Notes: generated by a model from the sequence alone, not told the origin. A stretch of 59,054 nucleotides of DNA from Candidatus Moraniibacteriota bacterium (GCA_013334245.1 JAAXXZ010000006.1:1-59054), one strand, 5' to 3'; positions 1-10,244 are shown, counted from the stretch's first letter. Numbers and translations: made by a program.

Positions 1-114
1 TCTGTCGCACGTTTGAGAAAAGCGATTCTGGAATATCTCCCGTATTACAACGGGGAACGGATCCATATGGGAATCGGGTACCAAACACCCGAAGAAGTGA
101 TGCAAAGGTATTGA
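1..114 (+). mobile_element. 3' end of an IS481/IS3-type DDE transposase (partial at window edge)
   Basis: Frame +1 reads SVARLRKAILEYLPYYNGERIHMGIGYQTPEEVMQRY*; the YN..R.H..IG..TP motif is typical of the integrase-core C-terminus. Confidence 0.75.
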
Positions 115-177
115 CTAGGAAACGCGACGAATGCCCCATTCGCTCGCATTTAGTTATAGTCAGCAGTCAAGGGCACG

Positions 178-335
178 AGGCAACGGGAGTTTCGTCCTCA
201 GCGCCTGCTAGCGCTTCGTAGTCCAGGGCAGAGCCGAATGTTTCCTATTCGGTCGCATTCATCGACGCTCGAAGACTCGCTTCTGCCCGTCACGTCGCTC
301 GCGAGCGATCGTGACCAGTTCGACTCCCGTTACCC
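178..335. repeat. Structured palindromic element bounded by copies of the tRNA-Gly 3' end
   Basis: 318-335 GTTCGACTCCCGTTACCC is the exact reverse complement of 9617-9634; 179-190 GGCAACGGGAGT is a near-complement of it; internal hairpins GGGCAGA/TCTGCCC and GTCACG/CGTGAC. Confidence 0.7.
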
Positions 336-339
336 ATAA

Positions 340-377
340 GAAAGAAGAAGGGGCTCATATGAGCCCCTTCTTCTTTC
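340..377. terminator. Perfect 38-bp palindrome; likely the tRNA-Gly terminator of the pre-integration site
   Basis: GAAAGAAGAAGGGGCTCAT|ATGAGCCCCTTCTTCTTTC, ending 3 bp before the inferred left junction. Confidence 0.7.
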
Positions 378-478
378 CTTTGAGCTGGCTGGTGCAGAGC
401 GTTAGAACTGAATCAATGTATAAAACCGGGATTTCTACAGTTCAAAAGTAGAAGCCCAATAAATTAAACTCTGCCTCT

Positions 479-3400
479 CTATTCAACGAATTTCATCTGC
501 ATTCTACCTACAATGTTTCTTATTTTATCTACATGATATACCCCATTCATCTCTAGCCTACCAATATAGTCTTCTCTTGCATGAGAGCCTCCTATTAGCT
601 GTTTTTCTCCTAGAATTGTCCAAAATATCTCACATTCATTTTTCTCAAGAAAATCGAGTAATGCCTTTTTGTTAATCAATAAAACTGATGGAAAACTTTC
701 TTCAAAAATACTTGTTGGCATAGCCACTAGGTGATTTTTCCTATCGAAGAATCTTCCGTCAAGAAGTTTATGTTTCAGCCCCATTTTATTTACCAACCAC
801 TTGCAGGGCATTCTAACCGAGACAGCTCCTGTATGCGAGCCATCCATCGTGAACTCTTTTGCATAAGAATCGTCTGGTACGACTACCTTAATTGGTAAAC
901 TACCCTCTTTTATTCCTGTCTTAGTCCAAATGTTATAATTTCCCCTCAAGTTATCAAATGCTAGAGAGTTAGGGTACTCATCCAGAAATACTTCGTGAAA
1001 ATCGTGCGACTCTGGCATTGATCTCCCCATTAACCTTCTACTTTTTACCAACCTATAGAATGTTTTCGCATCTTTCTTCTTTACAATGTAGCTTTTAAGC
1101 TTATACCAAAGACTACGCGATGGCACATCGTATCTTTCATTTTCTGGGGGAACATCTTCCTGCCAATCAATAAATCCGTCTAAGACAAGCCATTCCCTTG
1201 CGCTATCTCCGGTAATTTGAATAACCTCTTCTGGCTTTGGAATATCTTCTTTTGTTTTCATCCAGTTCTTATCTGACTTTCTACTTTTCCAACCATCGTA
1301 TTTCCCTGAGTCAGACAACCATTGAGAAAAACTCTCTGATACTTTTAAATGATTGTCATTTTGAATAATAAGCGAGGGATCAATGTCTCTTATGTGCGGA
1401 TTCCACGGACCGAGATAATCCTCTTTCTTATCGCTACTCCAACTATTGCCTTTGAACTCGAAGTTATCAGAAAGAAGAGCCATAAATTCATGGTATGCAA
1501 TCCACTGGTATTTTTTCCCAATCCTTTCAGTTTTGCTTTCAGATCTGTCGGGGCTTTCATAACGACTCACTGAACTATCAAATTCTCCATGTAGAGCTTG
1601 ACTATACCCGAGTTCAATCACCCTACTAAACATCCACCGCTGAGCTAATTTAAGATCAAAGCGATCGAGAGGGTCGTTTATTTGTCCGTTACTATTCAGA
1701 AATGGTTTGATGTTTCTGTAAAAAAACTTTCTCTTTATAGGGGAGAGGGATTTTTCAAAATCAGCATGAGCTTTACTCATTTCTATTTTCTGCCTTCTAT
1801 CATATTCCTCTGACTTTTTGAGATCGAACTCCTCATCTTTGAAAGAAGATACTTTGATTGATGCGACTATTTTTGATAAATCTATACCGAAAAAAGGATT
1901 AGTTGCTTTACCAAATAGATTTTGTTGTTGTTTAGTTAAGTCTTTTTTAAATTTATCAAATAAGACTTTTCTATTTACTTCATTACCGTTAAGTCTTCTT
2001 CCAGACCAATGGCCGATAGAATAATCTATGCTCTTTTCGAAATCATCCAGTGGCGCAAAATCATGCATGATCGATGACCATATATCAAGAAATCCACGCT
2101 CCTTGGTTTTATTCTGGAAGAAGTCTTCTGGATAATACTTTCTCTTCAATGTCTTTTCAGATGTGATTCTTTTTGGCCACTTACTTTTAAACGGCGGGTT
2201 CAGGTTAGCCTCCACCACACTTAGTTTTACTTTTTCTTGTATTGCAATTTCAATAAGCCCACGCGCATAATCACGAATTAGGACATTGACTGGGGGGTTT
2301 CCAGTCTTAAAAACAACATTATAAATCCATGTAGCCAGTTCACCTAATTCACGCCTATCTTCTCTGGAATGTGCTGCACATCCATAAGCGACAGCATATA
2401 AACGCTCTAGGATATAGGAATCGTTTATATCCCTGAACTGCTTCAGCAAAATTAATACTACACTTAATCTATTTTTTAAGAGCATGACTAATGCTCTGGT
2501 ACTTTTGTCTCTTAAAAATCTATTCGGTGTGGCAAGAAACCAAACAAGTGTCGTACAACAAAGGCGGATTGATTCATTACTTATGTGTTTTTTGTCTTCA
2601 CCCGACCAACCCCATTCGATCAATCTATCAACTGCATCTCTTTCTCCATATTGATAATGCAGAAAGGTTGACCACCACGAATCCCTATCTGGCATCGAAA
2701 ACCCAGATAGATGTTTATGTAAAAAATCCGCATTAAAGGGGTGGGTCGGTACTGATGCTACAGATAAAAAAGCATTTAGTAAGTTGTTGTGACCCGAGTT
2801 AGTTTTTATAACCCTAGTATTTATATAATCCAGAACGCTCTTTAAGTCCTTTGAAAAGGCGCTCGGCCGTCTCCATATTAGACTCCCAATAAATGCATCC
2901 TCAGCAGCATCTGAGTGTTTTAAGTAGGGTGCAACCTCAATTAATTCGTGCCCCTGTAGGTATTCTGGGCATTGGATAGACAGCGCTTCAATAACACCCC
3001 TGTTCCATGATTTCGCGAGAAATCTTCCAAGCTTTCTTCTTTTTGAAAAAAATACCTTTGCGGTCTCTAAACTCTTATTGCCTTTTCCTATTTCAATTTC
3101 ATACTTTTTGAAGATATACCTTGCTATTAAATGATCACTGAACTTTTGAAATGGGAATCGGAAATCAAACCCTTCGTAGCTACCTTTTTCAACCGAGTAT
3201 CTTGGGACTTTAACTAGAAGCAAGTCTCTCTCCAGAGCCTGCGTAAAGGCTACGGGGTCTACTAATGGATAGGCTTTTTTTACAATTTGGAAAACCTGCT
3301 CTTCTGATACTCTGTCATCATTTTTTTCAACCATTGTGGCCGAGATTCTTTTAATCACAGTATCCCAAATCACATACTCGCCATTACCACTCTTTCCTTT

Positions 3401-4660
3401 TGGAAGCCTAAAGTCAGAAGCGATCTTGTCAGCTGCTTGTTTAATGAATGCCTCGAAGATGTGGGTGGCTCCAATATGCCCCTTAAATGGCTTAATGCTT
3501 TTTAATTGAGTCTCTGTTTTGTCTGATAGATCCTTATTCTTTTTTCCAAACGCAGCACAGAATAGAAGAAGAAACAGCGGTTCTTTAAACTCAGGCAACA
3601 AGAGGGGAATCTCTGGTAGGGGTATTGAAAATTCTTTAAAAAACTTATTCGCTGCTTCCCATTCACGAAATTCGAACCCCCGGTGTTTTTCTTGAACAAA
3701 AAACTTGTTCAGTTTTTTTGTTATTATCTCTTCTTCGAACCCCTCCCTTACACTTACAATCAATCCGATATTTGGATATTTTTTAATTTCTTCAACAAGC
3801 TTACCCAAATTTCTCTTCCAAAAAAGCTGTTGCTTTGTTTCATTTAAAGCGTCAATCATAAGAATTGATCGAGCGCCTGAGCGTTTTCCTGCTGTATTTA
3901 GCATTTTTAAAAACTTACTCTTTGAGACCTTTAGCTCAAGCTGTTTAATAGTCTGTTGTATCGGATCATCGGATGTTGAAAAAAACTCGCCAAAAACAAG
4001 AGCTGTTGGAAGTGGCTTTTTCTTTTGTACCCTGTTCTCTGTAAGATCACACAGTAGGTGAGTTTTTCCAGTTCCAGCCACGCCTGTTAAAAGTAAAAAT
4101 GGAGAGTTTGATAGATTCGCCCCAGTACTAAGAGCAAATTTTATAAAGTAATTTAGCTCCTTTTGAACCTCATAAATATAATGAATATCAGAACCAAATC
4201 TTTCAGTACTTGATTGATAACCCCCTTGGTTTTCAGCTACTTTTTCCTTCTCATGCTTACTCTTTTCTTCTCTTAGTCTATCTGAAAGTTTCCACGAAAA
4301 CTCCTCTGCCTTTTGTGCATTCTTATTAATTTTCTCCCAAGGAATGTCAGAGACGTTGTATTCTTTAACTTTTTTTAAAAGCTCTAAAAGACGAGAGATT
4401 TCGTATTTAAAAGTCGAGTACAGTTTCTTGATTTCTTTATCTTCATAATTTGACGAGACCCAACGAAACTCACGCCTCAATGTGCCGTGGTGCTTCCTTA
4501 TTACAGTATAAAAACCTTCAGTTCGACCGAGTCCATCAAAAATCTCCGCGATTGGTAGATCAACGTTTAACTCAGGAGTGTACCTATTACCCGCGTTTTT
4601 TTTAATTTTCTTTAGGTGGTTTTTAAGCCACGCTACTTGTAGAAAAGTATTATTAGACAT
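479..4660 (-). CDS. STAND NTPase, AVAST/Avs2-like anti-phage protein, lacking an N-terminal effector domain
   Basis: 1393 aa; Walker A GVAGTGKT, Walker B ILMIDALNE; downstream motifs RDKSTRAL, NDSYILERLYAVAYG, ERIGKKYQWIA, RDIDPS that I recognise from Avs2-like proteins. Confidence 0.7.
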   Translation of the reverse strand: MSNNTFLQVAWLKNHLKKIKKNAGNRYTPELNVDLPIAEIFDGLGRTEGFYTVIRKHHGTLRREFRWVSSNYEDKEIKKLYSTFKYEISRLLELLKKVKEYNVSDIPWEKINKNAQKAEEFSWKLSDRLREEKSKHEKEKVAENQGGYQSSTERFGSDIHYIYEVQKELNYFIKFALSTGANLSNSPFLLLTGVAGTGKTHLLCDLTENRVQKKKPLPTALVFGEFFSTSDDPIQQTIKQLELKVSKSKFLKMLNTAGKRSGARSILMIDALNETKQQLFWKRNLGKLVEEIKKYPNIGLIVSVREGFEEEIITKKLNKFFVQEKHRGFEFREWEAANKFFKEFSIPLPEIPLLLPEFKEPLFLLLFCAAFGKKNKDLSDKTETQLKSIKPFKGHIGATHIFEAFIKQAADKIASDFRLPKGKSGNGEYVIWDTVIKRISATMVEKNDDRVSEEQVFQIVKKAYPLVDPVAFTQALERDLLLVKVPRYSVEKGSYEGFDFRFPFQKFSDHLIARYIFKKYEIEIGKGNKSLETAKVFFSKRRKLGRFLAKSWNRGVIEALSIQCPEYLQGHELIEVAPYLKHSDAAEDAFIGSLIWRRPSAFSKDLKSVLDYINTRVIKTNSGHNNLLNAFLSVASVPTHPFNADFLHKHLSGFSMPDRDSWWSTFLHYQYGERDAVDRLIEWGWSGEDKKHISNESIRLCCTTLVWFLATPNRFLRDKSTRALVMLLKNRLSVVLILLKQFRDINDSYILERLYAVAYGCAAHSREDRRELGELATWIYNVVFKTGNPPVNVLIRDYARGLIEIAIQEKVKLSVVEANLNPPFKSKWPKRITSEKTLKRKYYPEDFFQNKTKERGFLDIWSSIMHDFAPLDDFEKSIDYSIGHWSGRRLNGNEVNRKVLFDKFKKDLTKQQQNLFGKATNPFFGIDLSKIVASIKVSSFKDEEFDLKKSEEYDRRQKIEMSKAHADFEKSLSPIKRKFFYRNIKPFLNSNGQINDPLDRFDLKLAQRWMFSRVIELGYSQALHGEFDSSVSRYESPDRSESKTERIGKKYQWIAYHEFMALLSDNFEFKGNSWSSDKKEDYLGPWNPHIRDIDPSLIIQNDNHLKVSESFSQWLSDSGKYDGWKSRKSDKNWMKTKEDIPKPEEVIQITGDSAREWLVLDGFIDWQEDVPPENERYDVPSRSLWYKLKSYIVKKKDAKTFYRLVKSRRLMGRSMPESHDFHEVFLDEYPNSLAFDNLRGNYNIWTKTGIKEGSLPIKVVVPDDSYAKEFTMDGSHTGAVSVRMPCKWLVNKMGLKHKLLDGRFFDRKNHLVAMPTSIFEESFPSVLLINKKALLDFLEKNECEIFWTILGEKQLIGGSHAREDYIGRLEMNGVYHVDKIRNIVGRMQMKFVE

Positions 4661-4695
4661 AGTTAAGTTAAAAGTAGAACCAGCACTTGTTTCTC

Positions 4696-4731
4696 AAATA
4701 AAACACCCCGTCTCATGCAAGCGCGGGGTGT
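4696..4731 (-). terminator. Terminator-like hairpin in the leader of the STAND NTPase gene
   Basis: ACACCCCG (4703-4710)/CGGGGTGT (4724-4731), followed on the minus strand by a T-rich run. Confidence 0.5.
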
Positions 4732-4821
4732 GGGATAGTCAGGCGAAGATTCAAAACCTTCGTATAGCTCTTTCCGTACTTTCTTGATTATTTGGGGTAA
4801 TTTTTATCTTGATTTTAAGAA

Positions 4822-4850
4822 AGCATACCACGAACAGACCTCTCTATCAA
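4822..4850 (-). promoter_or_regulatory. Sigma70-type promoter for the STAND NTPase
   Basis: Minus strand TTGATA-17 nt-TATGCT with TG extended -10. Confidence 0.5.
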
Positions 4851-5125
4851 TAAAAATGCACTACGCCCTTTCTTGAGTGCTCCTCAACTCACTCTGGCAT
4901 GGTCGAGGGGTTCGGAATAAGAAAAGTCATAAAAGTATGTATCTACCAAAAAATGGTTCCTCTAGGGTCATTTTTTGATGCCAAAAACTGATTCTTTGAT
5001 TTTTAAATCAGTTTCTAGGAGTTTTTGAAGCAGCAAAATAGCAGTCCTATATAGGTAGCGCCATTTTGCCGATTCACACTAAAGCCGTTCTGGTGTGATA
5101 AATAAAGCATTTTGAACTTGGAATC

Positions 5126-5154
5126 TTGATTTTTTAACCAAATTGGAGCATAAT
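5126..5154 (+). promoter_or_regulatory. Sigma70-type promoter upstream of the structured RNA and nuclease
   Basis: TTGATT-17 nt-CATAAT. Confidence 0.55.
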
Positions 5155-5160
5155 TGAGCC

Positions 5161-5328
5161 ACAATCTGTCCTAACCCTAGAGCTTCAAAACTCTAGGTAT
5201 GGCGTAATAAATCCTAGATGAATAAAAACGGCCTTATGGCTGGCGCTTATTCATCTAGGTCGATGTCTCGAAAGGGATATCGTGCGGCTTCGAAAGGAGC
5301 TGTAGCCATGTCGTAAGGCCCTTTTTGT
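5161..5328 (+). ncRNA. Structured leader or small RNA with two GAAA-tetraloop hairpins
   Basis: Hairpins 5261-5282 and 5283-5304 (GAAA loops, several G-U pairs on + strand); closing stem 5230-5244/5305-5320 then T-run; competing 13-bp helix 5213-5225/5247-5259. Confidence 0.6.
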
Positions 5329-5337
5329 TTGCGCAAT

Positions 5338-5754
5338 ATGTTCCATAGGAACAAGATCGAATACAAGGATTTAAACTCCCGAGCTCAAGAAAACTATAAC
5401 TACCACAAGTTATCGGCTGTTCTGGCTGACTACGGCTATACAACTCTCAGACTTTCAGACGACTGGCAATCAGCAGACTGCATCGCAGTTCATCGGGACG
5501 GTAGCTCTATCAAGATCCAACTCAAAGGAAGATTCGTTCTGAACAAGGACTACATGGGGAAAGACCTCTGGATTGCGTTTATGGACAGAAAGTCTTATAA
5601 TTGGTATCTTTATCCACACGATGAGCTTTTGTCAGAACTGGAACTAGATAAAGAATCCTTCAAGTTTGTGGATTGGTTCAAAAATGCTGGCTCCTATACT
5701 GCTGCGACTCTCTCGAGCTCCCTCTCAAAAATCCTAGGGAAACACAAAATCTAA
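5338..5754 (+). CDS. Small stand-alone PD-(D/E)xK-fold nuclease-like protein
   Basis: E-containing helix then ADCIA...IKIQLKGR pattern; ATG at 5338 preferred over TTG at 5329. Confidence 0.6.
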   Translation: MFHRNKIEYKDLNSRAQENYNYHKLSAVLADYGYTTLRLSDDWQSADCIAVHRDGSSIKIQLKGRFVLNKDYMGKDLWIAFMDRKSYNWYLYPHDELLSELELDKESFKFVDWFKNAGSYTAATLSSSLSKILGKHKI

Positions 5755-5885
5755 TACTTCCGAAAAGCCATAAGTCACGAAATCTAGTAAAAAGGCCTAT
5801 ACTCATAATAGAGGGGCGGACATTCACTACTCATACAACTATGTAATACATCGACAATAAATTTCTCTAAATTCCCCGCTTTTGA

Positions 5886-6040
5886 ATTTCTAGCGACTTA
5901 TTGTGTCCTAGAAATCAGCTACCAATACAATGGAGCTGGCGGTAATATGGCTCATCTTAGCTAATTTTTGCTAAGAAGATATATCTCAAGTATTTGAGTT
6001 ATCTTGAAGCCTTTATTACCTCCTGGCTCCTTTTTGTTTT
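5886..6040 (+). promoter_or_regulatory. Structured leader/attenuator upstream of the helicase module
   Basis: Hairpins 5886-5915 and 5916-5938; long stem 5932-5952/6008-6030 enclosing two hairpins, followed by TTTTTGTTTT. Confidence 0.45.
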
Positions 6041-6063
6041 GTTAACCAGTAACTGCAACTTTC

Positions 6064-6336
6064 ATGTATCCAGTTATCTATGAGAAAGCCCCGGTCGTGC
6101 ATGTTTCGCTCGATGAATTGGTCGGCAAAGAGATTTCCTTAGGCCTGTACCAGGCCAACGACACATGGGAAAAACACCTTTCCTTGGATTTAGAGAGGGT
6201 CTCATCTACTCTCAATCCTACCGAACGGGAGTCTTTCCAGAAGAAGCGTTTGGGATATGCGCTTTCCCCAAAAGAAAGAAAGGCATTTTCTCGAGCGAAA
6301 GACAAGGTTCAGCTTCTGTTAAACATTAACTCCTAA
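6064..6336 (+). CDS. Hypothetical protein, possibly sigma-region-4-like
   Basis: 90 aa; LNPTERE...GY...FSRAKDKV resembles a truncated sigma4 helix pattern; first gene of a tight operon. Confidence 0.45.
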   Translation: MYPVIYEKAPVVHVSLDELVGKEISLGLYQANDTWEKHLSLDLERVSSTLNPTERESFQKKRLGYALSPKERKAFSRAKDKVQLLLNINS

Positions 6337-6339
6337 GTT

Positions 6340-6588
6340 ATGGCTTGCAAGCAATGCGACAAGAAAACGTACTTTGCGGAAGACCTCTACACTGCCGCCC
6401 TGCTGATTCACTTCGGGTTCAAGGTTGTGGAAATCCAGAGAAGCAAAGTCGGTGTGAGCTTGGGTTTCCGCGAAACAGACGACCTGTGGGAACTCATTGA
6501 AACGGATAGACTGACCCAGAAGCTCCGGGTTAAACCGAGTAAGTTTTGGGAATCCGTAGATTTCGCGAAAGAATTGATGTACCGCTAG
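6340..6588 (+). CDS. DUF5659-like small protein
   Basis: 82 aa; DLYTAALLIHFGF...F...LRVKPSKF...KELMY pattern; 3-bp gap from the previous gene. Confidence 0.55.
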   Translation: MACKQCDKKTYFAEDLYTAALLIHFGFKVVEIQRSKVGVSLGFRETDDLWELIETDRLTQKLRVKPSKFWESVDFAKELMYR

Positions 6589-6592
6589 ACCT

Positions 6593-7657
6593 ATGGAATC
6601 GTTCAAACGCCTGGCGGAAGAGAAAGAGCGTAAGAGGCTTGAAAAAATCAGAGAAAAATTAAAATTGATCAGTTGGAAAGATCTCAGTCAAGAGGAGTAT
6701 GGCGCCTGCGAGTGGATTGTGGACAGAGTCGTCCCTATGGAAGGGGTAACGATCATGTCAGGAGCACCGGCCTCCTATAAAACATGGCTTCTCCTCCAAT
6801 TGGCATCAGACATCGTCCAAGGAACTTCGTTCTTGGGTCAGTTCAGGTGCGAGAAAAAACGTGTCCTCATCGTTGATGAGGAGAACCACGCTCGGCTTCT
6901 ACAAAAGCGACTCCACTCGCTTGGAACTCCTACGGATGTAGAAATTCACCTGATGTCCCAAAAAAACTTTCTCGTAACCGACGAAGCGATGCGAGCAGTT
7001 CTTCTTGAACACTGTGAGAAGACTAAGTCGGAAGTAATCATCTTCGATTCACTCATCCGAATAAGCCATGCGGACGAGAATGACGCAAGGAGTATGGATG
7101 ATGTCTTCCGTGGATTGAAAGCCCTATGCGGGGCGCATAAGACCGTGATCGTAACACACCATGAACGAAAGGAAGGGCTGCAGCAGAGATCATCTGCTCA
7201 GAACAGGATGCGTGGTTCATCCAACATTTCCGCTCAAATTGATTCTCATGTAGCCATTTCGCGCGACAAATTCGATCGAAGGTTGATCACAGTCGAACAT
7301 GCGAAAAGCCGAGAAGAGGAAGAACTTCCATCCTTTAAGGTGGCGGTTCGCTCCGAGAACGATCGGGTGTGGTTTGAGTACCTCGGCGAGCACGACGAGG
7401 GAAAAACGAAGAAGGAAACAGCCGCTGAGGTGATTCCATTAATCCTTCAGGATAATCCGGGTGGCTTCACAAAGACCGAAATTACCACCAAGGTTCTTGA
7501 GTTAGTTGACGTAGGCGGCAAGAATGCGCAAAAGGCTTTGGACGAACTCATCACGAAGGGCGTCGTTGGGACGCGGAAAGGAAAAGGAAATACCCAGGTC
7601 TGTTTGCTGTTGTCTTCGGAAGACGAAGTTTCCGACCACCCTGAAATGGTGATCTGA
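6593..7657 (+). CDS. RepA-like SF4 helicase (AAA_25) with probable C-terminal winged helix
   Basis: Walker A GAPASYKT, VDEEN, IIFDSL, VTHHERK, RGSS. Confidence 0.8.
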   Translation: MESFKRLAEEKERKRLEKIREKLKLISWKDLSQEEYGACEWIVDRVVPMEGVTIMSGAPASYKTWLLLQLASDIVQGTSFLGQFRCEKKRVLIVDEENHARLLQKRLHSLGTPTDVEIHLMSQKNFLVTDEAMRAVLLEHCEKTKSEVIIFDSLIRISHADENDARSMDDVFRGLKALCGAHKTVIVTHHERKEGLQQRSSAQNRMRGSSNISAQIDSHVAISRDKFDRRLITVEHAKSREEEELPSFKVAVRSENDRVWFEYLGEHDEGKTKKETAAEVIPLILQDNPGGFTKTEITTKVLELVDVGGKNAQKALDELITKGVVGTRKGKGNTQVCLLLSSEDEVSDHPEMVI

Positions 7658-7717
7658 CTTGGTCTATATACTATCACCGTTTCACCGCTTCAGATCACAA
7701 CAAAGGACCATCTGGTT

Positions 7718-7897
7718 ATGAACGAGACGGACGTAATCAAATTCAAGGAACTCTACGAGGAGGAAACGGGGGATTTCATCTCTCTCGAAGAGTCCTTGAA
7801 GTCCGTCCAAAGCCTGGTCGAGATGGTCCGACTGATCTATAAACCCATAAGAAAAGACTTGTATAAGCGGTGTACAAGAGACGAGGACGCTATATAG
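7718..7897 (+). CDS. 59-aa hypothetical protein upstream of the recombinase (not in ORF track)
   Basis: MNETDVIKFKELYEEETGDFISLEESLKSVQSLVEMVRLIYKPIRKDLYKRCTRDEDAI*; AAAGGA upstream. Confidence 0.65.
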   Translation: MNETDVIKFKELYEEETGDFISLEESLKSVQSLVEMVRLIYKPIRKDLYKRCTRDEDAI

Positions 7898-8002
7898 TGA
7901 ACCCGTTGACCCAACCAGTATGAACGAGCGTCATAGTGAACCCAGAAAGGCAGCCCTACCGATAGTCCGCTCGATTATTGGGTCAACGAGGGCTGTCTTT
8001 TT
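7894..8002 (+). promoter_or_regulatory. Switch-like leader of the recombinase gene
   Basis: Stem 7946-7957/7989-8000; 7904-7914 complementary to 7978-7988; 7925-7930 complementary to 7968-7973; ATAGTGAACCC repeated at 7894 and 7933. Confidence 0.55.
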
Positions 8003-8014
8003 GGCTTTCTGATT

Positions 8015-9622
8015 ATGAAAAACGACATAAAATACCTCGTATATCTGCGGAAATCGACCGACTCGGAGGATCGTCAGATCCAGTCTATCGAGGACCAGAG
8101 AAAGGAGCTGCGGCGTATCGCCGATCAGCTTCATGTCGACATAGTCGGATATTACCAGGAGAACATGTCGGCGAAGCGTCCGGGACGTCCGGAATTCAAC
8201 CGAATGTTGTCCGACATCAGGAAAGGGAAGGCTACTGGTATTCTCTGTTGGAAACTGAACCGACTTGCGAGAAATCCGGTCGACGGAGGTGAAATCATGT
8301 GGCTCGTCCAGGAGGGAATCATACAATCGGTACAAACACCCGGACGGGAATACAAGACTGGGGACAACGTCATCATCATGAGCGTCGAATTGGGTATGGC
8401 GAGTCAGTATGTCCTCGACCTGAGTCGGGACGTAAAAAGAGGCATGCAGTCAAAAGCCGAGAAGGGGTGGCGTCCCGGAAGGGCACCGCTCGGATACCTG
8501 AACGACAAAGGAGGGGAGCAGGGGAACAAAATCATACATGTGGATGAGGAGAAATTTCCACTCGTCCGGAAACTGTGGGACCTCATGCTTTCCGGTGAAT
8601 ACTCGGTTCCCAAGCTGACAGATATCGCAAACGACGACTGGGGACTGAAACGGTCCACCTCCAAGGGTGATAAACGGCTTCATGAGAGCCATATCCACAA
8701 GTTGTTAACTAATCCCTTCTACTACGGTGAGTACACCTGGAACGGAGTTACCCATCAAGGGAAACACCAACCCATGATTTCACAAGACGAGTTCGACCGC
8801 GTGCAATCACTGCTCGGCCTCAAAGCGAAACCTCAGACCAGACACCGCTTCCTTCCATACCGGGGGATCCTTCGTTGCGGGGAATGCGGATGTTATATAA
8901 CAACCGAAAAAAAGACCAAACTAATCAAATCTGAGGGGAAACTTCGTTCCTATATCTATCACCATTGCACCCACAGGAAAGCTGATGCGAATTGCAGACA
9001 AATGCCTGTCAGTCATGAGGAAATAAACTCGCAAATACTTGAAATCTTGAAAAATATATCAATCCCGGAGAGTTTTCTCGCGTTCGCTTTGGACATCCTG
9101 CGACGTGACAATGAAATTCAGACGGAAAACAGGGCGACTATGGAAAAGAACCACCGGAAGACCCTGGCAAGCTGTAATCAGAGGATAGACAACCTGATCA
9201 AGGCATACATCTCACAGGAAAACCAGGATAGGGACCTCATCAGCGATCAGGAGTTCAAGGACCAGAAATCTTCTCTGATTAAGGAAAAGACCACCGTTCA
9301 GACAAGAATCGAGGGTCTCGAACGACAGGCGGAGGAGTGGTTCAACCTGACGGAACAGAGTTTCAGATTCGCGACCCACGCAAGACATGAGTTCGAAACG
9401 GGTGATTTCGAGACGAAAACGCGTATTCTGATGGCTCTCGGTCAGAACTTTGTCCTGAAGGACGGAAAAGTCACTATTCAATTGAAAAAACCATACCAGA
9501 TCATGGAAGAAGGGAGGAAACGGATACAAGCGGAAAACCCAGGGTTAGAACTAGACTCTTTAGCTTTAGATAAAACAAAAACAGCCTCTTTCGAGGCCGT
9601 TTCTGCTACTCTGAGCGGGTAA
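8015..9622 (+). CDS. Large serine recombinase (resolvase + recombinase + Zn ribbon + coiled coil)
   Basis: YLRKST catalytic motif, SAKRPGRPEF, KLNRLARN, APLGY, NPFYYG, CGECG...HC...C. Confidence 0.95.
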   Translation: MKNDIKYLVYLRKSTDSEDRQIQSIEDQRKELRRIADQLHVDIVGYYQENMSAKRPGRPEFNRMLSDIRKGKATGILCWKLNRLARNPVDGGEIMWLVQEGIIQSVQTPGREYKTGDNVIIMSVELGMASQYVLDLSRDVKRGMQSKAEKGWRPGRAPLGYLNDKGGEQGNKIIHVDEEKFPLVRKLWDLMLSGEYSVPKLTDIANDDWGLKRSTSKGDKRLHESHIHKLLTNPFYYGEYTWNGVTHQGKHQPMISQDEFDRVQSLLGLKAKPQTRHRFLPYRGILRCGECGCYITTEKKTKLIKSEGKLRSYIYHHCTHRKADANCRQMPVSHEEINSQILEILKNISIPESFLAFALDILRRDNEIQTENRATMEKNHRKTLASCNQRIDNLIKAYISQENQDRDLISDQEFKDQKSSLIKEKTTVQTRIEGLERQAEEWFNLTEQSFRFATHARHEFETGDFETKTRILMALGQNFVLKDGKVTIQLKKPYQIMEEGRKRIQAENPGLELDSLALDKTKTASFEAVSATLSG

Positions 9623-9685
9623 CGGGAGTCGAACCCGTATTTCGTCCTTGGCAAGGACGCGTAATAGCCGCTATACGATACCCGC
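9614..9685 (-). tRNA. tRNA-Gly(GCC)
   Basis: GCGGGTA acceptor stem, GTCCT-TGCCA-AGGAC anticodon arm, GGTTCGACTCC T arm. Confidence 0.95.
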
Positions 9686-9714
9686 CTTCGCGCTCCGCGC
9701 TTCGGCGTGGCAGG
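9682..9714. repeat. Short REP-like palindrome
   Basis: CCGCCTTCGCGCTCCGCGCTTCGGCGTGG; also a 19-bp direct repeat (1 mismatch) at 9711-9729 and 9769-9787. Confidence 0.4.
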
Positions 9715-9800
9715 CCCGCTTTTCACCGACGCTACGGCTTGGCACATCACTCGAGAGCGATATCGTGACAGGCACGCTTTTCACCGATCTTCACCGCCTG

Positions 9801-9873
9801 TGGGACTGGCTGGATTCGAACCAGCGACCAAGCGGTTATGAGCCGCCTGCTCTAACCGCTGAGCTACAGTCCC
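9801..9873 (-). tRNA. tRNA-Ile2(CAT), lysidine type
   Basis: GGGACTGTAGCTCAGCGGTTAGAGCAGGCGGCTCATAACCGCTTGGTCGCTGGTTCGAATCC...; body resembles ileX rather than Met tRNAs. Confidence 0.85.
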
Positions 9874-9926
9874 GGCCGGAACATGGCTATAAATGGTATT
9901 ATACACCACTTATACACATTTTCCTG

Positions 9927-9998
9927 TGCCTGGGGACAGAATCGAACTGTCGACACGAGGATTTTCAGTCCTCTGCTCTACCACTGAGCTACCCAGGC
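9927..9998 (-). tRNA. tRNA-Phe(GAA)
   Basis: Full cloverleaf; GAGGA-CTGAAAA-TCCTC anticodon arm. Confidence 0.95.
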
Positions 9999-10060
9999 GA
10001 AACACAAATATGAGTGTACAAGACTTTTCCTGACCCGTAAATACCCCGGCCGATTGTCTG

Positions 10061-10134
10061 TGGGCAATGGAGGACTTGAACCTCCGACCCCCTCGGTGTA
10101 AACGAGGTGCTCTAACCAACTGAGCTAATTGCCC
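10061..10134 (-). tRNA. tRNA-Val(TAC)
   Basis: Full cloverleaf; CCTCG-TTTACAC-CGAGG anticodon arm. Confidence 0.95.
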
Positions 10135-10142
10135 ATCAAAAC

Positions 10143-10244
10143 TGGACTCGCCCCGCATCCGCGGGGCGCCCGGCGAATGCCTGGGCGAACCCCCGACCCC
10201 CTCGGTGTAAACGAGGTGCTCTAACCCGCTTGAGCTAAGCGTGC
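10143..10244 (-). pseudogene. Disrupted second tRNA-Val(TAC) copy
   Basis: D and anticodon arms nearly identical to the adjacent tRNA-Val; 37-nt double palindrome (10149-10185) in the T loop; no 3' acceptor strand. Confidence 0.75.

Follow-up and report, generated by a model that had tools for sequence, protein, structure and literature searches.

In this study, we describe an integrative element and its large serine recombinase (LSR) gene in a stretch of 59,054 nucleotides from a Candidatus Moraniibacteriota bacterium (GCA_013334245.1 JAAXXZ010000006.1:1-59054), referred to below as the window. The host is a member of the Patescibacteria (Moranbacteria-like) with a small genome (1.12 Mb in 34 contigs), and the window lies at the start of contig C15. 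The element is an island of 9,231 bp (386-9616, equivalently 381-9611) that adjoins a tRNA-Gly gene, and its LSR gene very probably spans the crossover core, with the coding sequence for its C-terminal tail found 9.2 kb away at the other island end. In the integrated state the gene encodes 535 amino acids ending in ..LSG, whereas the predicted circular form would encode 555 amino acids and read ..LS+WLVQSVRT.. across the rejoined core.

Island boundaries and the recombinase gene at the tRNA

The LSR gene (8015..9622, plus strand) ends with ACT CTG AGC GGG TAA. Its last residue, Gly535, and its stop codon are supplied by the antisense sequence GGG TAA of an intact tRNA-Gly(GCC) gene (9613..9685, minus strand), the stop itself (TAA, 9620-9622) being located inside the tRNA. 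This tRNA gene forms the B' arm, and its T-loop reads AGTCGAAC in antisense at 9627-9634. The crossover core is located inside the LSR reading frame, at the Ser534 codon: the right copy of TGAGC (9612..9616, plus strand) overlaps this codon and positions 71-73 of the tRNA, and the left copy occupies 381..385 (plus strand). Directly after the left copy, the P' arm of attL (386..451, plus strand) holds the detached 3' end of the LSR gene, 21 codons plus a stop that read WLVQSVRTESMYKTGISTVQK and are in frame with ..AGC only once the island is circularised. The gene end, the TGAGC coordinates and the frame of 386-451 had been read in the same way in an earlier note on this DNA, and all of them are correct in the sequence. 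The note had also taken TGAGC as a very short crossover core; a shared short core was indeed found, but across the family the island junctions share only GAGC (4 bp; 382-385 and 9613-9616 here), the longer TGAGC being seen in this window.

It should be noted that the TGAGC repeat is not significant by itself. Ten copies of this 5-mer occur on the plus strand of 1-9700, and two of the eight other copies also precede at least 21 open codons. Since such a short repeat is common by chance, the boundary was checked by independent evidence. Two genomes of the same genus (G006, locus L008, and G001, locus L009) contain an empty site, CCCCTTCTTCTTTCCTTT/GAGCGGGTAACGGGAGTCGAAC, which corresponds to the window up to 385 fused to 9617 onwards; its left 66 nt are identical to the window, the tRNA follows on the right and no scar is visible. 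The arrangement terminator-TTTT/GAGC-tRNA is present in five more genomes of this genus. Among the Logan contigs of run X2, which belongs to the probable source study, one carries a joint 380>9612 that skips 9231 nt, with five letters fitting both sides; the depth of this empty-site joint was 55.5, compared with ∼18 for the island. GC content falls from 0.53 to 0.34 near 390 and increases again near 9600. On the basis of the empty sites, the X2 joint and the GC steps, the island boundaries were set at 386-9616, so that the island directly adjoins the native terminator on one side and the 3' end of tRNA-Gly(GCC) on the other. The left boundary predicted in the earlier note therefore coincides with the exact empty site of the two island-free genomes, and the search for junction reads that it had proposed, run here on contigs, returned the empty-site joint (380>9612 in X2) but not the circle junction. 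A paralogous tRNA-Gly(TCC) locus in the same genome, with the order terminator-GTGAGC-tRNA, is free of an island. In run X1, a contig joint 270>9612 had a shorter side of 20 nt and zero shared letters. Extra island copies were not argued from the depth in this run (1135-1337 for the island, 1025 for the flank), because the measure is too crude.

Both left half-sites coincide with terminator hairpins. The B arm of attL is a host palindrome (335..382) that serves as the native tRNA-Gly terminator at the empty site, with a minus-strand RNA fold of -40 kcal/mol. The P arm of attR (9574..9611, minus strand) encodes the recombinase residues ..KTKTASFEAVSATL, and on the strand opposite to the LSR gene it folds into a hairpin with a U-run after it (minus strand -27.4 kcal/mol, plus strand -15.7; an A.C mismatch in the plus-strand fold is a G.U pair on the minus strand). 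The codons for ..KTKTA...AV.. are the antisense of the hairpin and then of the U-run. Thus, judged from the predicted fold, the last 15 in-island codons of the LSR gene also encode a replacement intrinsic terminator for tRNA-Gly, and the tRNA would keep a terminator after insertion.

A direct repeat was rejected as the attachment (att) site, because the sole long repeat at the island ends is inverted, belongs to the host and is present at empty sites too. One arm is a copy of the tRNA-Gly 3' part from T-loop to acceptor (318..335, plus strand), on the host side outside the island; it matches the inverted arm at 9617-9634 perfectly over 18 nt. Were the terminator palindrome of 46 nt (336-381) looped out, the empty site in this genus would become a perfect 18-GAGC-18 palindrome. 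A symmetric attB of this kind was also rejected, since attL in other hosts lacks the inverted tRNA copy; moreover, the model fails for attP, where the P-arm hairpin is only ∼34 nt (hand pairing of 9574-9607). The 18-nt inverted repeat is thus probably not required for integration, as the comparison of hosts suggests. One and the same small structure was observed beside three tRNA genes of the host genome: Gly-GCC (window 185-385), Gly-TCC and Glu (L003 1470-1680; L002 1440-1700). [quoted passage not shown] Genomes of the same genus have this structure at their empty tRNA-Gly sites as well, and either a miniature element or template switching could account for it.

The assignment of the enzyme to the large serine recombinases is based on its catalytic domain, DBD1 together with a four-cysteine zinc ribbon, its predicted fold and the short identity between its att sites. 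Pfam domains were identified for Resolvase (PF00239, E=4.4e-20, residues 9-151), Recombinase (PF07508, E=1.5e-11) and Zn_ribbon_recom (PF13408, E=8.8e-6), and R12, S14, R58, R83 and R86 as well as the zinc-ribbon residues C288, C291, C318 and C327 are invariant in an alignment of 31 LSR sequences. The fold was judged on P0040, a 59%-identical homolog of the window protein in the attP form (AlphaFold2 (AF2) model, mean predicted local distance difference test (pLDDT) score 86). This model matched solved LSR complexes (9y66_A, Z 18.0 with 462 residues aligned; 4kis_A, Z 13.6; also Bxb1 and PhiC31), the high root-mean-square deviation of the matches reflecting domain placement. The matches span residues 1 to ∼500, and the last ∼50 residues are outside the known LSR fold. 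Coiled-coil helices were located at 352-399 and 411-462 of P0040, and a further helix at 524-546 crosses the crossover point (pLDDT ∼81 for 531-540); according to the model, integration would halve this helix.

The detached tail and its relatives

Homologs of the LSR (E<=1e-30) were present in 170 of 301 genomes sampled from the host's order. All 15 non-self loci at 48-68% identity end in ..KTKTAxxxAV[SF]xx[LWMV]SG, and a sixteenth (L035, also 48%) ends in ..SK. The stop codon (TAA, TAG or TGA) lies at the same position of the antisense tRNA-Gly in 16 of 16 close loci, and the ..SG end was also found in 94 of the 120 best database homologs.

To locate distal island ends, upstream sequence reaching as far as 20 kb was taken for 17 homologs and searched first with a peptide pattern, later with a DNA profile. 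The expected junction, host terminator-GAGC/xLVxxVRTxF.. (P'), was identified in frame for 14 of these 17 islands, and the distal tail junction was also seen in L079 and L067 on other contigs. We considered L067 as a circular permutation and rejected this, because it has no terminal overlap and is one more integrated copy, its attL standing at the beginning of the contig. The search gave no distal end for L063, for L064 (with only 5.3 kb to search) or for L065, which has only an off-frame look-alike with a GATC core; among the 17 ..SG loci taken from genome contigs, nine had no distal end within 10 kb. Examples of distal tails read in frame with ..AGC up to their stop are WLVHAVRTRLKQEIRM, WLVNTVRTGFMNKSFV, YLVNAVRTGFMERSAGFNL and RTVEEVRTFFMFNSNFFYIPNLS. 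Additional P'-like sites (terminator plus GAGC or GATC plus xLVxxVRT..) were noticed in or beside related islands, at ∼12370 in L049, ∼3036 in L056, a second site in L077 and ∼10800 in L065; L065 also carries an off-frame P-arm/P' junction. By their sequences, these extra sites look like remnants of earlier or tandem insertions.

Further investigation of relatives revealed genes in which the tail is contiguous with the enzyme. These include three database proteins, P0008 (..ATWS/WMIDVARTLYK), P0040 (..ESMS/SLVNTVRTGFMGKSFV) and P0068, and eight distant relatives with unsplit genes from other phyla (L084, L087, L089, L092, L093, L101, L117 and L139; ∼36-45% identity), which end in ..SP[MI]L..L..[VI]RT[WYC][FI]M....FY[VI]PxFE. 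A second subfamily is split at other tRNAs: the unsplit L117 reads ..SPTLLR/MLNDVRTYLL.., whereas L104, L110 and L123 pass from ..SPTLLR into antisense tRNA. Since the tail is contiguous in unsplit relatives and in database proteins, the sequence comparison identifies it as the ancestral C-terminal coding segment of the enzyme, detached by integration. A database search with residues 471-550 of P0040 returned 23 matches, with the tail covered by the query only.

These observations agree with the expectation of the earlier note that the distal in-frame tail would be conserved in related elements, and with its proposal that integrated and excised forms would encode different C-termini (..LSG and ..LS+WLVQSVRT.., respectively). 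Its W....VRT signature is conserved as well, with the correction that part of the conservation is a constraint on a DNA site, as set out below.

In a wider clade (L036-L048 and L086-L145), we observed that the open reading frames (ORFs) end in the antisense of many different tRNAs (for example, ..GSDSNRRPID and ..WRESNPHHQFGKLT), with host names from several phyla, DPANN archaea among them. Thus, the design is not confined to tRNA-Gly or to Patescibacteria. With regard to protein stability, an ssrA-like degron (-AA end) is absent from the tails, which end in ..TVQK, ..TLYK, ..KSFV, ..KYLI, ..EIRM, ..FTTC, ..KSPV and ..PDFS. The extreme end of the tail is not conserved, and degrons of other types are possible.

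Constraint on the tail and the possible meaning of its exchange

Comparison of the P' arms indicates that the conservation of the tail is due to both DNA-level and protein-level constraint. At the DNA level, the VRT codons correspond to GTT(A/C)GAAC, a look-alike of the tRNA T-loop (window copy GTTAGAAC at 401-408). This motif ends 23 nt past the core in P' versus 18 nt past the core in B', where it is the real T-loop, and no indels were found in 19 P' arms. For LSRs, a rule has been described in which the DBD2 (zinc-ribbon) motif lies 4-5 bp farther from the centre in attP than in attB, as given in the part of that report devoted to it (bioRxiv 10.1101/2025.01.03.631226). The 5-bp offset between P' and B' matches this rule, so the VRT conservation is predicted to be largely the enzyme's own putative binding site; only the right-hand half-sites fit the rule. 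A second copy of the motif, GTTAGAAC, is located inside the LSR gene (9544..9551, plus strand), where it is read in another frame (G-TTA-GAA-C) as part of the conserved ..LEL... Of 17 close relatives, 14 have TTA GAA at this place and 3 have GTC GAA. From its invariant codon choice in relatives, the in-gene copy seems to be under DNA-level selection and might be an accessory binding site.

At the protein level, we measured the ratio of nonsynonymous to synonymous differences (pN/pS) outside the motif (codons 2-5 and 9-11 of 19 P' arms). It was 0.62 in frame versus 1.59 and 1.87 in the shifted frames, and 4 of 1000 column shuffles reached the observed in-frame value. Synonymous variation is evident in the tail: Val3 uses all four GTN codons, Leu uses CTN as well as TTA, and F-Y-[VI]-P-x-F-E also varies.

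With regard to mechanism, circularisation would rejoin the LSR gene and yield a 555-residue enzyme with a complete C-terminal helix. This long form would perform attP x attB integration, and an integrated island would produce the truncated 535-residue protein. A directionality or stability switch had been raised in the earlier note, as a possibility only. Judged by analogy to Mx8 IntP/IntX (see below), the exchange of tails may change the activity, direction or stability of the enzyme, which we consider possible without expecting it; alternatively, the tail would be needed only because the P' site happens to fall in coding sequence. The more specific proposal that the tail is a cis-acting direction determinant, the full-length form being competent for attP x attB and the truncated form locked or biased to attL x attR, is in our judgement unlikely.

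A number of observations weigh against a split gene that is rejoined and used on the free circle. Nearly all VRT codons are GTT (A/C)GA AC(T/C), in 19 close and in 9 distant sequences, GC-richer relatives included, and the T-loop-like 8-mer occurs twice in the attP region, in direct orientation, and is read in two frames (..LEL.. and VRT). The tails of the close subfamily have 11-23 residues, not longer than chance open frames in AT-rich DNA, and vary in sequence after about residue 11. Such data favor the explanation that the gene is indeed split but without regulatory significance, the tail being kept mainly as a translated P' half-site that mimics the T-loop and the two isoforms being equivalent; we regard this as having somewhat less than an even chance. 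The end of the structural matches from the Protein Data Bank (PDB) near model residue 500, which leaves the last ∼50 residues beyond the canonical fold, also fits it. The frame-specific constraint outside the motif, however, speaks against equivalence of the isoforms. In relatives of ∼40% identity, Leu at -4, W/F/M after VRT and F-Y-[VI]-P-x-F-E, 45-60 nt past the motif, are kept through synonymous changes, and the AF2 helix 524-546 of P0040 spans the junction. The strength of the frame signal itself has to be read with caution: the first frame test, with the motif included, was weaker (21/2000 shuffles with 16 arms, 88/2000 with 11 arms and 117/2000 for codons 2-8), and six P' arms had first been found by a peptide regular expression, which biases them towards the motif. 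The 88/2000 test used arms that were not picked by the peptide pattern; it drops five of the six pattern-picked arms and keeps the window's own arm as reference. In addition, the standard LSR model predicts a symmetric DBD2 motif, and none was seen in the left half-sites (B and P arms, the terminator hairpins).

Other adverse points concern whether the rejoined form exists. The circle junction was not seen in Logan contigs of four runs (X1, X2, X3 and X5) compared with window 1-10000; contigs drop rare variants, and the absence of this joint from contigs says nothing either way. The shorter side of the X2 joint measures only 25 nt, and the joint could also come from a strain that was never occupied. 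In the window's own tail, Ser replaces the Phe of relatives (VRTES versus VRT[GE]F; tail position 10) and the longer FYVPxFE end is missing, so that, by this comparison, the tail may be degenerating. Together with the low-GC cargo, which looks separately acquired, the missing circle joint and the off-consensus tail could indicate that excision has ceased and the island persists as a fixed remnant, with the 535-residue protein, domesticated or decaying, as the sole form in this lineage and the tail as a fossil. We consider this quite improbable, because the LSR ORF is uninterrupted and retains every invariant catalytic and zinc residue, the island-free site is scarless in two same-genus genomes, the island-free joint reaches ∼3 times the island depth in a run of the probable source study, and a 98%-identical LSR is present in another assembly (P0001). 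ORFs in the attP form are rare (3 of 120), and they could have arisen in tandem or nested chromosomal arrays that read into the next P' arm rather than in free circles. Second P'-like sites, each after terminator plus GAGC, were found near three islands (those of G133, G128 and G044) and show that arrays or remnants of this kind do occur, the B arms of L057, L059 and L062 look like decayed P arms, and the same possibility was raised for the DsiB recombinase in the pertinent passage of McMurdie et al. 2011 (PMC3146451). On the other hand, the longest contigs of P0008, P0040 and P0068 are 9.9-14.7 kb, near element size, and an origin of these ORFs in arrays appears somewhat unlikely to us. A recombinase gene that spans the core, with its tail at the distal island end, remains the reading that we prefer.

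Island content and comparison with known systems

The largest gene of the island (479..4660, minus strand; 1393 residues) encodes an Avs2-type STAND NTPase for anti-phage defence (PADLOC PDLC02164, E=0, profile positions 167-1496 of 1504), the match leaving the first ∼166 profile positions, the usual N-terminal part, uncovered. The GC content of this segment (0.33-0.40) is far lower than that of the recombinase/replication module (0.47-0.50), which suggests that the cargo was acquired separately. It is followed by a 141-residue ORF (5329..5754, plus strand) and two small plus-strand ORFs (6064-6336, 90 residues, and 6340-6588, 82 residues, the latter with a weak DUF5659 match under the Pfam cut-off). 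An AAA_25 (RepA/DnaB-like) ATPase gene (6593..7657, plus strand) matches the ATPase parts of PHROG primase/helicase families and probably serves the free form as its replication module. The ORF immediately before the recombinase gene (7718..7897, plus strand) has 59 residues and is a candidate accessory or directionality factor. The ORFs at 5329-5754, 6064-6336 and 7718-7897 had no match in Pfam, PADLOC or PHROGs. No second integrase was found in the island, where PHROGs matched only the ATPase and the recombinase and no virion-type family. From its gene content, the island looks like a small integrative, probably replicative element that carries a defence gene.

Outside the island, 40 nt of tRNA-Val(TAC) were seen to be duplicated at 10187-10226 (98% identical to 10078-10117), at a distance of 109 nt from the gene, possibly as the scar left by a further integration event. 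At the other side, the contig begins with the open end of an ORF (window 1-334) that resembles the C-terminus of an IS3-type transposase, and a Pfam search with its 72-residue fragment gave no match. In run X1, contig depth over this stretch was ∼6 times the depth of the island, consistent with a multicopy repeat at which the assembly broke.

Serine integrases are valued in genome engineering for their strict direction, which is set by a separate factor. If the proposed mechanism is true, members of this clade would sense the integrated or free state through their own gene being cut and rejoined, in a self-contained manner, instead of or besides a recombination directionality factor (RDF), and the same few dozen base pairs would serve as protein code, recombinase binding site and tRNA terminator. 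The finding further shows tRNA genes to be widely used as targets by serine integrases in Patescibacteria and other uncultivated phyla, with elements that keep the tRNA intact and bring a replacement terminator. Since the island carries an Avs2 gene, such elements also move anti-phage defences among very small genomes. For annotation, the design explains hundreds of 'recombinase family proteins' that end in antisense-tRNA residues (..SG or ..GSDSNRRPID), and the far island boundary can be recognised by terminator-GAGC-xLVxxVRT.

The LSR family and an attP inside the integrase gene are both already known. The window enzyme resembles canonical LSRs (SPbeta, PhiC31, Bxb1 and Listeria LI/A118) in domain order, fold, short core and the 5-bp DBD2 shift in attP. 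In the canonical systems, however, the att sites are outside the integrase ORF and roughly symmetric, and direction is set by a separate RDF, whereas the window LSR has a tRNA 3'-end target, terminator hairpins as left half-sites and a P' site in coding sequence. According to the Islander paper of 2015, tRNA genes were not known as targets of serine integrases (PMC4383910). In the literature searched, supplements apart, we did not find a large LSR clade that targets tRNA genes and has a conserved, detachable tail, nor a P' site in coding sequence that mimics the T-loop, nor a tRNA terminator embedded in a recombinase gene; searches for a split-integrase design in Patescibacteria returned none, only the analogues described below.

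One of these is DsiB of the Dehalococcoides ssrA islands, a ∼540-residue serine recombinase whose gene at its 3' end always overlaps the att junction, with its stop in antisense transfer-messenger RNA; in the relevant passages, the authors speculated that DsiB is fully functional only on the circle (McMurdie et al. 2011, PMC3146451). It differs in its ssrA target, in the direct repeat of the ssrA 3' end at both boundaries and in a second small recombinase, DsiA, alongside. The same passages describe the overlapping part as divergent and report no conserved restored tail, whereas in the window family the tail is conserved and contiguous in unsplit relatives. For Mx8 IntP/IntX, the section of a review on this phage describes attP within the int coding sequence, where integration gives a new 3' end and the altered enzyme is active with changed properties, which has been read as a switch (PMC6070905, citing Tojo 1996 and Magrini 1999). 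The window LSR shares the location of attP inside the integrase gene. The Mx8 enzyme, from a Myxococcus phage, is a tyrosine recombinase with long core identity and a far larger replaced part, in contrast with the serine recombinase, 4-bp core and antisense-tRNA stop codon of the window element. SSV1-type integrases are archaeal tyrosine recombinases whose gene is divided into two large parts, unlike the window LSR gene with its short detached tail. The Islander paper names this type together with Mx8: the fusellovirus integrase gene spans attP, and insertion into a tRNA gene splits it (PMC4383910). In integration-dependent immunity of mycobacteriophages (BPs, Brujita and M. abscessus prophages), the portions of the reports on this system place attP in the 3' end of a gene from which integration removes a degradation tag, the stop being supplied at attL (PMC8092301; PMC4557955). 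There, as described in the same portions, removal of the tail by integration is a stability switch; the split gene is a repressor and the integrase is of the tyrosine type, whereas the tails of the window family are without an ssrA-like -AA end. The present window provides a tRNA-Gly case with exact empty sites and a separation of DNA-level from protein-level constraint.

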